From positions 13,186 to 77,185 of the IMG/VR virus record IMGVR_UViG_3300019872_000002: a DNA stretch of 64,000 nucleotides, one strand, 5' to 3'. The notes under the pieces are model-generated. The model had not been told where the DNA came from, ran no database searches, and was given only the letters and a program-made list of their open reading frames with translations. This DNA comes from a virus (lineage: Duplodnaviria > Caudoviricetes). The first letter of the stretch is position 1. Every line of letters begins with the position of its first letter. Positions 42,490 through 55,044 of the stretch are shown in pieces. A program made the position numbers and the translations under genes.

Positions 42490-43854
42490 CTATTTGTGAC
42501 GAAAGAAGGATGTATTGTTCCTGATGTCGTATTTTTTAAATTCAGTGTTTATTTTGGAACCATGTCTAAGTTTTTTACCAAAATCAGTATAAGCAATATA
42601 ATTGAAAATAGGCATGTCTGTATAAACATTACTTTCTTTATGATCACTATACCATTCTGCCATTAACATAGCGAAATGTTCCACTATTGACGCTTTTCCT
42701 CCCACTATTCCCGCATTTAATAACGTTTTGTTTTTATATCGTTCATAAAAGGAATGATAGCTTGGGTCAATAATATCATTGTTATGATTTTCTTTAAGCC
42801 ATTTGCATCCTACTATTTGCTTTTCATCCCCTACATATAGATAATCACTCAAATCACATAAAAATGGGTTATTTAGCATCACTACGTCTGTTGAGTCAAC
42901 CATAAACACCTGATCGTATCTGTTTTCACTCAAAAAGTAGTATAAGCTGATCCATCGTTGAAAATACGGATTATGATTAGATTTCACTTTTACATATTCA
43001 ACTTCCTTTGTGTTATCTATATCAAAACAATCATTAATAATAATCAACTTTTGTCCCTTCATCGATTTTATTAATTTTTCAAGCTTAGTATGGTCTGCCT
43101 CCCAATTACTTTCCAGTTGAGGATCTTTAATCCCGGTGAAGAATGTAGTTATTATAGCCGTTCTTAATGGCTTATATGGATAATATTTCTTGCTCTTTTT
43201 GTTTTCAGCCAGTAGCCTGTCATTTATTTTTATTCTAGCTCTTTTAGCTTTAACTGTACTCACAACCTCCTTAGCCCAATCCATACTGTGAAATAAATCC
43301 GAACTGTTATATATATCTTGGTATGGATGCTCCGTCAATCCTGCGTTATAAGTCCTATTGGAGAAGTCAACATGCTCGTGTGAATATTTTCCGTATCTAA
43401 CATCGAATCCCCCTATTACATCTAATACTCTACTTCGTATGTACAGCATGCACCCACATGGGTGAGAATACCTTGCTATACCAGAAACTACATTGATTAA
43501 TTTATGTCCATTGTATTCCCCTGATTTAAGCTGATCGAAGGTGAACATTAAGTGATTGATACCTGATTCAATATAAGGCGTATACCAGTCCTCAGCAATA
43601 GGATATATATCATCATCAGATAGAAATATATGCTCGCAATCGTCCAGTAACTCTAAACATTTATTTTTTACAACAGCTATACCGGCATTTTTTTCAAATC
43701 TATAATGTGAATCTGGAATAGGAGTATCACTGGCATCGTCAACAATTACCAGTTTACTATTTTCCGGCATTTTTGATTTCCATTTGTGTATGGTAGGTAA
43801 CGCAACTTCATTCCTATTGTGGCAACTTATTGCTACTCCTATTTTATACTGCAT
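42490..43854 (-). CDS. two-domain glycosyltransferase (GT2-like plus second GT-A-like domain)
   Basis: N-domain IVDDASD, NAGIAVVKN, LSDDDIY, GGFD..YGKY..EH.DF; C-domain VDSTDV, LLNAGIVGG, DMPIFN. Confidence 0.8.
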   Translation of the reverse strand: MQYKIGVAISCHNRNEVALPTIHKWKSKMPENSKLVIVDDASDTPIPDSHYRFEKNAGIAVVKNKCLELLDDCEHIFLSDDDIYPIAEDWYTPYIESGINHLMFTFDQLKSGEYNGHKLINVVSGIARYSHPCGCMLYIRSRVLDVIGGFDVRYGKYSHEHVDFSNRTYNAGLTEHPYQDIYNSSDLFHSMDWAKEVVSTVKAKRARIKINDRLLAENKKSKKYYPYKPLRTAIITTFFTGIKDPQLESNWEADHTKLEKLIKSMKGQKLIIINDCFDIDNTKEVEYVKVKSNHNPYFQRWISLYYFLSENRYDQVFMVDSTDVVMLNNPFLCDLSDYLYVGDEKQIVGCKWLKENHNNDIIDPSYHSFYERYKNKTLLNAGIVGGKASIVEHFAMLMAEWYSDHKESNVYTDMPIFNYIAYTDFGKKLRHGSKINTEFKKYDIRNNTSFFRHK

Positions 43855-46024
43855 ATTCTTGATGATGTACAATGGTTGATTGAGCTTGCGCTTTATATGT
43901 TGATCGTGGTTGATTAGCTGCAAACTCACACCAGCCTGTACTTACACCTAAATCTTTCTTACCCCTATTAGCCCAATTCATACTTAAAAGCTGTTCTAAT
44001 ACTCTTGGATGATCTATAGTCCCAGCCCATTTAGCTGATAATGTCGTGAGGAAACTAAAATAAGTGTCTATGTTCCCTATTGTCGCACTTACCCCTTCTT
44101 TTTCCTGTTGCCCTTTAGAATTTCTCTTATCAGTTGGCTTGTCCATAAGATATAACTCATATCCCCTCATCTTTAAATAACTATGACACGCCCCAAATCT
44201 ATCTTTCTCCGGTAGAAAATCAGTACCATAATATACCATTGTCAAGATTACATCTTCAAAAAAATCATTAGGATCATTCTCTCTGTTTAAGTAATCACAA
44301 ACAATTCTGTTAGTAATGAAATTTGCCCCTCCATCTACAGGGTCACCTATCCTCCATTTTCCATCTGGATCATTGGATTGATAATAATTTACTTCACTAC
44401 CATCTATGTACTCATCAAGCATTCTTTTTACTGTTATAGCACCCTGAGAAGGATCAGATTCTAATGTTGACTGTTGTTCATAAGGATCTAATCCAGATTT
44501 AAAATAGTTAACGTTCCCTGGTTTATGGGCAATAACGCCTTTCACCTTACAATTAGCCTCTAATCCGAAATCACTTGGATGTTTTGATATCATCCATTTA
44601 CCATTAGAATTTGGTTCCCATATCACTTGAGTGTCCCTTTTTTCGTCCATCCACTTCAGATTACCTCTTACACATAAGCTTTTTGGCGCATCATGAAGAA
44701 CATACTGTTGTCTTCTAGCCAACTTCTCTATATCAAATTGGCTTCCCTCATTAGTGTTTTGGAATACATCCTCTATGGTCTCAGCGTTCATACGCATATA
44801 TTCAATCTTTCCCTTGATATCTCCTTGTTGAATACGCATGGCAATCTCACTTCTATTTCTCTCTTTAGCCTCCTCACTTTTAGGGAATCCCCATTTATCT
44901 ATAGGAGCGGCATCTAAACTTCCCCTAAATATCCTATATAGTCCTGTAAGAGTTTCTCCATTACTCTTTCTGTTTGCAGGATCACTCTGCGCCCACATTT
45001 GTTTAGCCACCCTTAATGTTTCTCCACCTTTAAGCTCCTCTACGGTCGAAGTAAACAATGCTTTACCTAGTATTTCATTTGTGATCTTATTATACATTGC
45101 TTGCTTAACAACTCCCCAAGCATACAATGGATTCATCTGTTCCATTTTACCCCATTCGTCCATATAATATCTCCCAAATGTTCCTGTACCAAAAACATGT
45201 GGTTTAGTAGCCCCGTAAACTATAGAGCTATCCAGCGGTGGGTATTCATAATCCTCATTTATAATTGCAGCTGCACCATGCTCAATTTGATTCTTCATCA
45301 TCTTCTCTTTGGATAGAGTTTCTCTTTGATAATCAAAAAATAACCCATCCTTAGGGTCAACACTTCCTCTATTTGTAGCCCTCATGAAAAACACCATTTC
45401 GTTATGAGCATGAAGAATTCTTTTGTATGCATTTTCATAAATATCAGTCTCGTTTATCGACTGCATTGGGCACTTAACCTTCTGAACCCTAGTTGCATAC
45501 TCATATAAGCAGCATATTGCCTTTTCTGTCTCGCCTACTTGGCGACATTTAGCTATAAGCAATCCGTAACACTTGGGATCATGTACAGCCAAAAACCACA
45601 TTATAAAAAAATCTAAATCAAGCTTTCTAAACATCATTTTACTTGCCGATGTTGATGACCAGTAATTCAAAAAAAAATAGAACACACCTGTTATATAATA
45701 TTTCTTACCTTTAATAAACATCCATATACCGTTAGTCCTTCTTGAGTATTCTCCATCTATAAAAGCATCCCTTTCTTTTATAGGCCATTTTTTTAAATCA
45801 GGAGGTATATATGTATAGCGAAAAACCTGCCTTTCTATGGGCAGGTCATGATTTAAAATAAGTTCATCTATAGGTGGTTCTGGCAGAATGGCTTCATACC
45901 CATAGACAGGATATATTGGAGACATATTTGTGAACTTCATTTCGTAATTAGGCAATCCATACAAATCAATTGTATTTTCTGTTTTTATTATATTATCCCA
46001 TTTACTTTTATTCTCTATCCTCAT
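43844..46024 (-). CDS. terL: terminase large subunit
   Basis: KCRQVGET (Walker A variant), YYMDEWGK (Walker B), GLDPYE nuclease motif. Confidence 0.85.
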   Translation of the reverse strand: MRIENKSKWDNIIKTENTIDLYGLPNYEMKFTNMSPIYPVYGYEAILPEPPIDELILNHDLPIERQVFRYTYIPPDLKKWPIKERDAFIDGEYSRRTNGIWMFIKGKKYYITGVFYFFLNYWSSTSASKMMFRKLDLDFFIMWFLAVHDPKCYGLLIAKCRQVGETEKAICCLYEYATRVQKVKCPMQSINETDIYENAYKRILHAHNEMVFFMRATNRGSVDPKDGLFFDYQRETLSKEKMMKNQIEHGAAAIINEDYEYPPLDSSIVYGATKPHVFGTGTFGRYYMDEWGKMEQMNPLYAWGVVKQAMYNKITNEILGKALFTSTVEELKGGETLRVAKQMWAQSDPANRKSNGETLTGLYRIFRGSLDAAPIDKWGFPKSEEAKERNRSEIAMRIQQGDIKGKIEYMRMNAETIEDVFQNTNEGSQFDIEKLARRQQYVLHDAPKSLCVRGNLKWMDEKRDTQVIWEPNSNGKWMISKHPSDFGLEANCKVKGVIAHKPGNVNYFKSGLDPYEQQSTLESDPSQGAITVKRMLDEYIDGSEVNYYQSNDPDGKWRIGDPVDGGANFITNRIVCDYLNRENDPNDFFEDVILTMVYYGTDFLPEKDRFGACHSYLKMRGYELYLMDKPTDKRNSKGQQEKEGVSATIGNIDTYFSFLTTLSAKWAGTIDHPRVLEQLLSMNWANRGKKDLGVSTGWCEFAANQPRSTYKAQAQSTIVHHQEYAV

Positions 46025-53113: not shown

Positions 53114-53275
53114 CTATTTTAGGATTTCCCTAAGCTTTTTCTGTTTATCTTCCGATAGATTCCTAGTGCCCTTTAGACACATGTAAAAATAATTTGGCTG
53201 TACTCCGATCTTCTCGGCAAGGAAGGATTTCTTAAACCCTGACCCTTTTACTTTTTCTCTTAAAATTCCTGTCAT
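53114..53275 (-). CDS. small Cro/XRE-like HTH regulator (53 aa, not in ORF track)
   Basis: KKSFLAEKIGVQPNYFYMCLKGTRNLS helix-turn-helix; promoter 4 nt upstream. Confidence 0.7.
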   Translation of the reverse strand: MTGILREKVKGSGFKKSFLAEKIGVQPNYFYMCLKGTRNLSEDKQKKLREILK

Positions 53276-53279
53276 GAAG

Positions 53280-53310
53280 CAAATGTAGTGTAATTATTTA
53301 TAATCACAAA
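53280..53310 (-). promoter_or_regulatory. Bacteroidota-type promoter for HTH-replication operon
   Basis: TACATTTG with TTTG exactly 19 nt upstream. Confidence 0.75.
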
Positions 53311-53691: not shown

Positions 53692-53792
53692 AAAAAAAAG
53701 CCTACCCGAATTAACGAATAGGCTTTAAATCTTGGGCAACAAGCGATATGAGAGTTTTATCAAGCCGAAGTATCTCATATCTACGGCACCAA
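53692..53792 (-). ncRNA. putative ~100-nt small RNA with own promoter and terminator
   Basis: TACATTTG at 53797-53804; hairpin CTTGG/CCAAG plus GATATGAGA/TCTCATATC; 12-bp terminator with T8 at 53692-53726. Confidence 0.5.
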
Positions 53793-53816
53793 GTGACAAA
53801 TGTACAAAAATATCAG

Positions 53817-53888
53817 CGTTCCGAGTAGGGTTCGAACCTACGACCTATCGATTAACAGTCGATTGCACTACCGCTGTGCTACCGGAAC
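53817..53888 (-). tRNA. trnN: tRNA-Asn(GTT)
   Basis: Full cloverleaf: GTTCCGG/TCGGAAC acceptor, ATCGA-CTGTTAA-TCGAT, TTCGAAC T-loop; no encoded CCA. Confidence 0.93.
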
Positions 53889-53891
53889 AAG

Positions 53892-53964
53892 TGTACCCTA
53901 CAGGATTTGAACCTGTGACCGACTCGTTATGAGCGAGCTGCTCTGCCAGCTGAGCTAAGGGTAC
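53892..53964 (-). tRNA. tRNA with CAT anticodon, probably Ile2 (lysidine type) rather than Met
   Basis: GTACCCT/AGGGTAC acceptor with C4:G69 and C5:G68, loop CTCATAA, TTCAAAT T-loop. Confidence 0.85.
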
Positions 53965-53969
53965 GTTTG

Positions 53970-54040
53970 TTTTCCTACATAGATTCGAACTATGATTTTC
54001 AGAACCAAAATCTGACGTGCTACCATTGCACCATAGAAAA
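53970..54040 (-). tRNA. trnQ: tRNA-Gln(TTG)
   Basis: TTTTCTA/TAGGAAA acceptor, TCAGA-TTTTGGT-TCTGA, TTCGAAT. Confidence 0.9.
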
Positions 54041-54046
54041 GTATTG

Positions 54047-54120
54047 TAGCGCAAGCGAGACTCGAACTCGCAACCTCCTGACCCCAAATCAGGTAATCTA
54101 ACCAATTGATATATTGCACT
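54047..54120 (-). tRNA. trnP: tRNA-Pro(TGG)
   Basis: AGTGCAA/TTGCGCT acceptor, CCTGA-TTTGGGG-TCAGG, TTCGAGT. Confidence 0.9.
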
Positions 54121-54125
54121 ATTTG

Positions 54126-54196
54126 CAGGCATAGCTGGATTCGAACCAACACTGTAGCTTTTGGAGGGCTATAGACTACCGTTATCGTATACGCCT
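54126..54196 (-). tRNA. trnW: tRNA-Trp(CCA)
   Basis: AGGCGTA/TATGCCT acceptor, loop CTCCAAA, GTTGG-TTCGAAT-CCAGC. Confidence 0.9.
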
Positions 54197-54201
54197 AAAT
54201 G

Positions 54202-54235
54202 AAAAAAGCCTCTTAGAAATAATCCAAGAGGCTTT
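54202..54235 (-). terminator. intrinsic terminator (attenuator) immediately upstream of the tRNA array
   Basis: 13-bp stem AAAGCCTCTTGGA/TCTAAGAGGCTTT within a T6 run, ending 5 nt before tRNA-Trp. Confidence 0.8.
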
Positions 54236-54254
54236 GATCGTATATTTTTAAAAT

Positions 54255-54323
54255 CTACATACCAGTTCCCCCTAGAATACTATTCCAGTTATTGGGTTGC
54301 TGTTGTATATTTATTGTTCTCAT
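54255..54323 (-). CDS. 22-aa leader peptide MRTINIQQQPNNWNSILGGTGM (putative attenuator sensor)
   Basis: ATG 4 nt after a TATGTTTG -7 box; codons 4-14 use only amino acids of the downstream tRNAs. Confidence 0.75.
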   Translation of the reverse strand: MRTINIQQQPNNWNSILGGTGM

Positions 54324-54327
54324 GTCA

Positions 54328-54335
54328 CAAACATA
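54328..54335 (-). promoter_or_regulatory. -7 promoter element for leader/tRNA operon
   Basis: TATGTTTG; no canonical -33 at the usual spacing. Confidence 0.6.
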
Positions 54336-54376
54336 GAGTAAAAATTCACAATTTTATAATATTATTGTGAAATAAT

Positions 54377-54405
54377 AAAAAAGCCCCACCGTTAAGTGAG
54401 GCTTT
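54377..54405 (-). terminator. intrinsic terminator insulating the tRNA operon from upstream transcription
   Basis: AAAGCCTCAC/GTGGGGCTTT stem plus T-run on - strand. Confidence 0.7.
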
Positions 54406-54462: not shown

Positions 54463-55044
54463 TTAAGCGTCCACTGGCTCACCAGCTTCTTTTTCTTTTA
54501 ATGCTTCAACCTCAGCTTTGCTAAGTGTTGCTCCGGCCATCCATTCTTTAGTCAACACCTGCAGATCGTTGCACATTTCTTCCAGATTGACTACCAGAGG
54601 GAATTTGTTCTCTGCGTGACGATCTAACGCGATAACAGGAGTCTCAAACTTAACCTTGAAAGGCTTGCCGAACTCTTCAATCAGCTTGTAACCATATAAT
54701 TTTACGCTTTCTACGTTTGCATTACCGCCAAACACGGCTTTCGTTACGTTTACTCCATCAAATCGCTCATCTTCGTTGTATTCAAACTCACGGAAGTATT
54801 TGTCGTAGTCCATATTCTCATCCAGATCAATCGAATGGCCGACAAGGGTAGTTCCGTACATCAGCATCGGTATTAAACGATCCCAAGCATCCGAAAGCTG
54901 CTTATTGATCGGCTGGTCGGACTTCTTTGAATGCTCTGCATTGAACATCTGTCTTTCTTTGTTCTGTTCTACAGCGGAATAAGTTACCTTAACATACTGT
55001 TTCTTGCTTTTTACTGTTACCTCTAACGATTTGTAATTCAACAT
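54463..55044 (-). CDS. hypothetical protein
   Basis: 193-aa ORF. Confidence 0.7.
   Translation of the reverse strand: MLNYKSLEVTVKSKKQYVKVTYSAVEQNKERQMFNAEHSKKSDQPINKQLSDAWDRLIPMLMYGTTLVGHSIDLDENMDYDKYFREFEYNEDERFDGVNVTKAVFGGNANVESVKLYGYKLIEEFGKPFKVKFETPVIALDRHAENKFPLVVNLEEMCNDLQVLTKEWMAGATLSKAEVEALKEKEAGEPVDA

Follow-up and report, generated by a model that had tools for sequence, protein, structure and literature searches.

The window analysed here is a stretch of 64 kb out of a 77-kb phage record from IMG/VR, with the majority of its genes on the minus strand. Shine–Dalgarno sites are almost missing from the window, and boxes of the Bacteroidota −7 type (TA-n-n-TTTG) stand close 5′ of many start codons; judged from these two features, the host of the phage is probably a member of the Bacteroidota. 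The label 'uncultured Clostridium sp.' of one protein relative was set aside as an unreliable bin label. A scan of genome contigs found no relative, and a Pfam search for hints of the host yielded nothing useful. Among the packaging genes, a 479-aa protein (42490–43929, minus strand) that was first presumed to be the terminase matched the glycosyltransferases of many mycobacteriophages instead (about 39% identity), with a weak Pfam GT2 match.

On the minus strand between positions 54700 and 53900, the end of a gene for a 193-aa protein and its terminator are followed by an inverted repeat, a −7 box, 4 nt, an open reading frame (ORF) of 22 codons, a 19-nt spacer, a 13-bp terminator, 5 nt and five tRNA genes (Table 1). 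Promoter, ORF and second terminator are hereafter referred to as the cassette. The first terminator is predicted to shield the cassette from upstream transcription. The inverted repeat, which is kept only in part in L002 (the close relative described below), may be an operator that would add repressor control to the tRNA module. The short distance between the −7 box and the start codon recurs in L002, in one cassette of the Cellulophaga phage phi4:1 and, in both the window and L002, at a small HTH-like gene, and it suggests that the leader mRNA is leaderless or near-leaderless. The leader ORF has no Shine–Dalgarno sequence, and its translation would depend on such a leaderless start. The HTH-like gene itself encodes 53 aa, and its −7 box (window 53275–53290; L002 4822–4841) ends 4 nt before its start codon, as that of the leader ORF does, which suggests that the phage makes leaderless mRNAs from more than one gene.

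Table 1 Features of the locus in the window and of the cassettes compared with it
Feature	Position	Strand	Details
Intrinsic terminator of the upstream 193-aa gene (54463–55044)	54380..54405	−	11 pairs and a T-run
Perfect 8-nt inverted repeat, 11-nt spacer	54345..54371	−	Read from the sequence; overlaps the upstream promoter region of the cassette
Bacteroidota-type −7 promoter box (TA-n-n-TTTG)	54328..54335	−	Ends 4 nt 5′ of the start codon
22-codon leader ORF, stop codon included	54255..54323	−	Same length and frame in L002 and phi4:1 cassette 1
Sensor block, codons 4–14	54282..54314	−	Ile-Asn-Ile-Gln-Gln-Gln-Pro-Asn-Asn-Trp-Asn
Region 2, 3′ strand of the long hairpin (ORF nt 46–67)	54257..54278	−	Only leader block conserved in all three homologous cassettes
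Middle hairpin	54236..54264	−	Extends across the stop codon and the 19-nt spacer; lies between the two strands of 2:3 when the antiterminator forms
Intrinsic terminator, regions 3 and 4	54202..54235	−	5′ arm 54235–54223, loop, 3′ arm 54217–54205, U-run to 54202
tRNA-Trp(CCA), Pro(TGG), Gln(TTG), CAT-anticodon tRNA (Met or Ile2), Asn(GTT)	53816..54196	−	Gaps of 2–5 nt between genes
phi4:1 cassette 1	NC_021788.1, about 87050–87190 (leader, piece L077 366–434)		22 codons, block at codons 4–14, 7 tRNAs downstream; all seven listed in the block
phi4:1 cassette 2	NC_021788.1, piece L076 854–973; overlaps annotated gp075		27 codons, 10 tRNAs; all represented, run of 16
phi4:1 cassette 3	NC_021788.1, piece L076 2636–2734; unannotated		32 codons, 5 tRNAs; all represented, weak run
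L074 cassette (uncultured phage, 25 tRNAs)	L074 5343–5518		39-codon leader, terminator before tRNA-Trp; 21 tRNAs downstream

The five tRNA genes are the only ones in the 77-kb record. The U-run of the terminator stops 5 nt short of tRNA-Trp, the first of them; no promoter fits into this gap, and the array can therefore be expressed only by reading through the terminator. This terminator, described in the initial annotation as the 3:4 helix of an attenuator upstream of tRNA-Trp, is present as a stem-loop of 13 pairs (54235–54205), five of them G–C, with a 5-nt loop and a predicted stability of −21 kcal/mol, and it places an intrinsic terminator between the leader ORF and the genes to be regulated. 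Compared with E. coli genomes, the CAT-anticodon tRNA may be either Ile2 or Met. Directly 3′ of tRNA-Asn, positions 53697–53812 (minus strand) contain two −7-type boxes, a long hairpin and a 12-bp terminator with a T-run, with no ORF spanning them; this stretch looks like a small-RNA unit and is missing from the corresponding place in L002.

The leader ORF is enriched in codons of the tRNAs encoded behind it. When the CAT tRNA is counted as Ile, codons 4–14 specify amino acids of the array only, and a cognate codon is present for each of the five tRNAs (hereafter, the roster). This run of 11 is the longest across the six frames of the window, the runner-up being 6. The set of codons served by the array has a frequency of f = 0.198 in the phage's own codon usage, which gives f^11 = 1.8e-8, and none of 20,000 simulated ORFs contained a roster run of 11. 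The roster includes two AUA codons, which the CAT tRNA would read if it is Ile2 (it would read AUG if Met). The one Pro codon is CCC, whose decoding by the UGG anticodon needs four-way wobble, and with a single codon each for Trp and Pro the sensitivity to these two tRNAs may be low.

In the collections searched we found one close relative, L002. Its upstream promoter region (about 40 nt) is about 97% identical to that of the window and its leader body about 60%, with no indels. The start codon, the 22-codon length, the position of the stop codon, Asn-Trp at codons 12–13 and the tail Gly-Gly-Thr-Gly-Met are all kept, and the terminator is retained, with distal positions that are altered yet still paired. 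What differs is the array and the roster. The array consists of a Trp-like gene, Gln, Ser(GCT), Ser(TGA), CAT and Asn, without Pro; the roster reads Ile-Gln-Ile-Ser-Gln-Ser-Ser-Ser-Asn-Trp-Ser, with five Ser codons drawn from both codon families and no Pro codon. Because array and block both differ from the window between unchanged flanks, the block has been rewritten together with the array. At the tRNA-Trp position (L002 3807–3879), an acceptor stem, a T-arm and a CCA anticodon loop can be made out, without a recognizable D-arm. This gene was called by neither ARAGORN nor Infernal and is either a decaying or an unusual tRNA; the leader still has its Trp codon despite the missing D-arm.

In L044, a more distant relative by its flanking genes, the whole module is missing, so that the module behaves as an insertable unit. 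Protein-guided searches returned relatives without the tRNA module (L044 and L049–L051) or contigs too short to reach it, and, apart from L002 and phi4:1, exact-pattern scans of viral and metagenome contigs picked up only chance matches or a conserved gene unrelated to the cassette. A BLAST search of cultured phages with the leader yielded no match. The route to phi4:1, a cultured phage of Cellulophaga that has three cassettes, was the tRNA-Trp of the uncultured phage L074; phi17:2, being 99% identical to phi4:1, was of no further use for the comparison. Six cassettes were thus available for comparison (window, L002, L074 and phi4:1 cassettes 1, 2 and 3), of which those of the window, L002 and phi4:1 cassette 1 form a homologous set of 22 codons.

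Cassette 1 of phi4:1 repeats the scaffold of the window: a −7 box, 4 nt, the start codon, three spacer codons after the block, the tail Gly-Gly-Thr-Gly-Val and the stop codon. Its terminator, which ends 6 nt before tRNA-Pro, has an 8-nt motif of the 5′ arm in common with the window, and in both phages the G-run of the leader faces this motif and the terminator lies 5–7 nt before the first tRNA. The roster differs, listing Gln, Arg, Leu, His, Glu and Pro for its seven tRNAs, and outside the cassette no other similarity was found between the window phage and phi4:1, a marine phage of 146 kb. All three members of the homologous set have the −7 box, 4 nt and start codon, a block at codons 4–14 that fits the cassette's own array, the tail Gly-Gly-Thr-Gly-Met/Val and a terminator at most 7 nt from the tRNA. 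Cassettes with a CAT tRNA in their array (window, L002 and phi4:1 cassette 2) have AUA codons in the roster block, and the block of phi4:1 cassette 1, whose array lacks such a tRNA, has none. In cassette 2, the annotated coding sequence gp075 begins within the promoter box, and its true start is probably later than annotated; the leaders of cassettes 1 and 3 carry no annotation in the record.

The L074 cassette extends the match to a far larger array. All 38 of its 38 codons are decodable by the tRNAs downstream, and 21 of 21 tRNAs have a cognate codon (p = 0.00015). The peptide uses 19 amino-acid types, precisely the set that the downstream array serves. Glu is the one amino acid that the leader lacks, and it has no AGA/AGG codons either; tRNA-Glu and tRNA-Arg(TCT) sit upstream of the cassette. 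Across the comparison, every array is fully represented in its own leader, and cognate runs outscore non-cognate runs.

These comparisons bear on whether the frame is real. Frames of 22 codons are not rare in A+T-rich DNA, the ORF lacks a Shine–Dalgarno sequence and there are three homologous sequences only, so one could suppose that the frame arose by chance and that the region is a structured 5′ leader of a tRNA precursor, acting for instance in processing or stability. We regard this as extremely improbable, given that start, stop, length and frame are held in three cassettes without indels at about 40% nucleotide divergence, and given the roster run of 11 and the full representation of each array described above.

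A second possibility accepts the frame and takes the cassette as the gene of a small RNA or peptide with a constitutive, leaky terminator, so that the tRNAs would be made by unregulated read-through while the RNA of about 120 nt or the 22-aa peptide would act in trans. The leader has its own promoter and terminator and is strongly structured (below), and the conserved tail of the peptide, in which the Gly codons change synonymously, would suit such a product. In Sinorhizobium, attenuator-derived RNAs and leader peptides are reported to act in trans (PMC6614838, PMC7298713). L002 also provides a tRNA that stands behind a terminator without a mini-ORF: an extra CAT-anticodon tRNA (within L002 4628–4742) follows the terminator of an ordinary 86-aa gene at a distance of about 10 nt; at the equivalent place of the window (53376–53275) there is no tRNA. 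The mere presence of a terminator in front of a tRNA is thus not enough to indicate a leader switch. However, a small-RNA or peptide gene would leave unexplained both the match between block and array and the rewriting of the block with the array while the flanks stay constant, and a function of the leader RNA or peptide in trans could coexist with attenuation. We consider the reading as a small-RNA or peptide gene very improbable.

We then turn to the RNA. The initial annotation had drawn, in addition to the terminator, a region 1 at codons 10–14 and a region 2 at codons 16–19 (54276–54268) that could pair with each other or, in the case of region 2, with the 5′ arm of the terminator, and both regions are located where it had put them. 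The minimum-energy fold of the whole leader in the ribosome-free state consists of 1:2 and 3:4 and is far more stable than shuffled sequences (z = −4.7). The protector hairpin is longer than proposed: ORF nt 14–42 pair with nt 46–67, and the pairing drawn originally is the tip of this hairpin. The sensor block doubles as the 5′ strand of the hairpin, which places the regulatory codons in region 1 and leaves region 2 sequestered by pairing with it. An equivalent hairpin forms in L002 and in phi4:1 cassette 1, with weak covariation: RNAalifold on the three sequences gave a consensus long hairpin with a covariation term of −0.11, from a MAFFT alignment that broke the codon register and with registers of pairing that differ between the sequences.

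The core of region 2 is a G-run that resembles the 3′ arm of the terminator and pairs with the 5′ arm. The proposed 2:3 duplex of 9 bp, three of them G:U, proved to be the best duplex between the leader and the 5′ arm (−12.0 kcal/mol). Before the 3′ arm has been transcribed, the conformer with 2:3 is predicted at −19.2 kcal/mol and the one that keeps 1:2 at −14.2 kcal/mol; 2:3 is therefore competitive, as the initial annotation had asked of the folding. The antiterminator conformer encloses the middle hairpin, and an analogous hairpin is seen in ribosome-masked folds of L002. In the absence of ribosomes, L002 keeps 1:2 before region 4 is made, and in phi4:1 cassette 1 the 1:2 helix is more stable than 2:3. 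As ribosome-free window RNA favours 2:3 at that stage, the default of the window cassette in the absence of translation may be to allow read-through and not to super-attenuate.

The pairing had also been put forward as support for a leader peptide that is independent of codon content, a role for which it is not strong enough in the window alone, where its p value is marginal (0.051–0.06 against 2,000 dinucleotide shuffles). Over the six cassettes the values were 0.051, 0.44 (L002, in which the pairing is 5 bp only and indistinguishable from chance), 0.023, 0.74 (phi4:1 cassette 2), 0.018 and 0.022, and the Fisher-combined value is 0.0017. In alignment A1 of the three 22-codon cassettes, the sole conserved leader block is the G-run with the next 11 nt (invariant columns 74–89), and the best duplex falls on this same G-run in all three (ORF nt 47–57, 51–57 and 50–58). 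One pair of the extended 2:3 helix, between ORF nt 51 and the arm, changes on both sides, from A–U in the window to G–C in phi4:1. The main weight of evidence is carried by the codon roster and the comparison of cassettes, and not by RNA pairing in the window alone.

To relate the folds to the position of a ribosome, its footprint was masked at each A-site codon and the transcript was folded as far as the terminator loop. With the A site at codons 2–12 of the window leader, 2:3 takes up 10 of the 13 bases in the 5′ arm of the terminator. At codons 13, 14 and 15 only 9, 6 and 3 of these bases are still paired in 2:3, and none is once the A site has reached codon 16 or lies beyond it, up to the stop, which bears out the earlier caveat that a ribosome stalled at Trp13 or Asn14 would partly cover region 2. 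A similar step occurs at codons 14–16 in L002 and phi4:1 cassette 1. A stalled ribosome thus begins to occlude region 2 where the roster block ends, and this would account both for the block stopping at codon 14 and for the lack of constraint on the three codons that follow. The stop codon lies 19 nt before the terminator stem in the window and 17–25 nt before it across the six cassettes, a distance at which a terminating ribosome covers region 2 and not the terminator.

The mask profile is also what we weigh against translation-dependent control of another kind, in which the drawn 2:3 helix would have no part and read-through would be set by ribosome–polymerase coupling, in which a ribosome close behind the polymerase suppresses the hairpin, by another antiterminator helix or with reversed polarity (fast decoding giving more read-through). 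The match between codons and array needs translation and not that particular helix, and the pairing does not rise above chance in L002 or in phi4:1 cassette 2. In E. coli, a translating ribosome is reported to repress terminators that follow the stop codon at a distance of a few base pairs (PMC4824070). In all six cassettes, however, the distance between stop codon and stem puts the terminator out of reach of a terminating ribosome; the G-run is found at the same codons in three cassettes, and the step in the mask profile coincides exactly with the end of the block. Reversed polarity would, moreover, amount to positive feedback on tRNA supply, which makes less regulatory sense. We therefore hold control without the 2:3 helix to be unlikely.

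Taken as a whole, the cassette is probably a multivalent leader-peptide attenuator that gives feedback control of the phage's tRNA supply. The attenuator logic of the trp operon, which the initial annotation had invoked, fits in that its parts are present and recur in L002 and phi4:1; specificity for Trp does not, as the block lists the five amino acids of the array. In the proposed mechanism, transcription would start from the Bacteroidota-type promoter at, or a few nucleotides before, the start codon, and a leaderless mRNA would couple the first ribosome to the polymerase as soon as transcription begins. The ribosome would translate the 22-codon leader, meeting at codons 4–14 the roster of amino acids of the downstream tRNAs. 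If any of these codons is slow, the stalled ribosome would keep the long 1:2 hairpin open, the G-rich region 2 would capture the emerging 5′ arm of the terminator, and the polymerase would continue into tRNA-Trp-Pro-Gln-CAT-Asn. If decoding is fast, the ribosome would move beyond codon 15 to the stop and cover region 2, the terminator would form and the array would stay silent. The net effect would be negative feedback that keeps the phage-supplied tRNAs at the level that translation needs. The parts and their positions, the match between codons and array, the co-variation in relatives and the alternative folds come from sequence analysis; where transcription starts, that the ORF is translated, that ribosome and polymerase are coupled and in which direction the switch regulates we infer.

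A broader suggestion, which we put forward tentatively and regard as somewhat doubtful, is that the cassette is a modular sensor that moves between phages, in which a fixed scaffold (promoter, start, tail with G-run, and terminator) surrounds an 11-codon roster rewritten with each array. Beyond homeostasis, such a sensor might notice when particular host tRNAs are lost, as in anticodon-nuclease defence or host shut-off, and boost the phage's own replacements. The conserved tail Gly-Gly-Thr-Gly-Met/Val might, in addition, time the decision at the stop codon.

The leader-peptide attenuators of enterobacterial amino-acid operons include trpL, hisL, thrL and ilvL, those of thr and ilv being multivalent. 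With these the cassette shares a short ORF rich in regulatory codons, a terminator just 5′ of the regulated genes, the location of the regulatory codons in region 1 and a stop codon placed such that the terminating ribosome would cover region 2; mutually exclusive 1:2, 2:3 and 3:4 helices are predicted as well, the 2:3 helix being statistically marginal in the window. By contrast, the genes that the window cassette would regulate encode tRNAs and not biosynthetic enzymes, so that the molecule sensed and the product belong to the same class. Its block enumerates five amino acids, one for each tRNA and mostly with one to four codons each, instead of repeating a single one; its mRNA is probably leaderless and made from a Bacteroidota promoter; and, unlike classical trpL, its ribosome-free RNA favours 2:3 before region 4 exists.

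T-box riboswitches bind uncharged tRNA directly, by means of a specifier codon and the T-box sequence; they work without translation, and the genes under their control are those of synthetases or of amino-acid supply. The cassette would resemble them in reading tRNA status, in switching between terminator and antiterminator and in controlling genes of translation supply; an Rfam scan found no T-box match in the region. The best Rfam match was the trpB ncRNA motif (RF04312), which is alike in having a hairpin, an A/U-rich linker and a terminator. Membership of this family was rejected, as the match reached 28.7 bits against a gathering score of 59, was driven by the terminator and contained several non-standard pairs in the 5′ helix. 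Matches to Phe_leader (21.7–25 bits, cut-off 55), Thr_leader (15.4 bits, cut-off 55) and the PyrR and L10 leaders were likewise below threshold and driven by the terminator, and none of the curated Rfam leader families (Trp, His, Leu, Thr and Phe) was matched at its gathering score. In full-text searches of the literature we found no paper that describes control of tRNA genes or arrays by a leader-peptide attenuator.

Phage tRNA genes are usually viewed as passively expressed cargo. If the proposed mechanism is true, phages gauge decoding speed codon by codon and tune their tRNA supply by feedback, and a textbook mechanism reaches a new class of genes, in which the product itself is sensed. 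The window offers a compact case of one cassette and five tRNAs with nothing else, and L002 a natural swap in which Pro is lost and two Ser are gained in array and leader alike. The homologous cassette in a cultured Cellulophaga phage makes bench work feasible. For annotation, we offer the rule of a mini-ORF and a terminator abutting a tRNA array. Cassettes of this kind would also give a possible read-out of which host tRNAs are limiting or attacked during infection.
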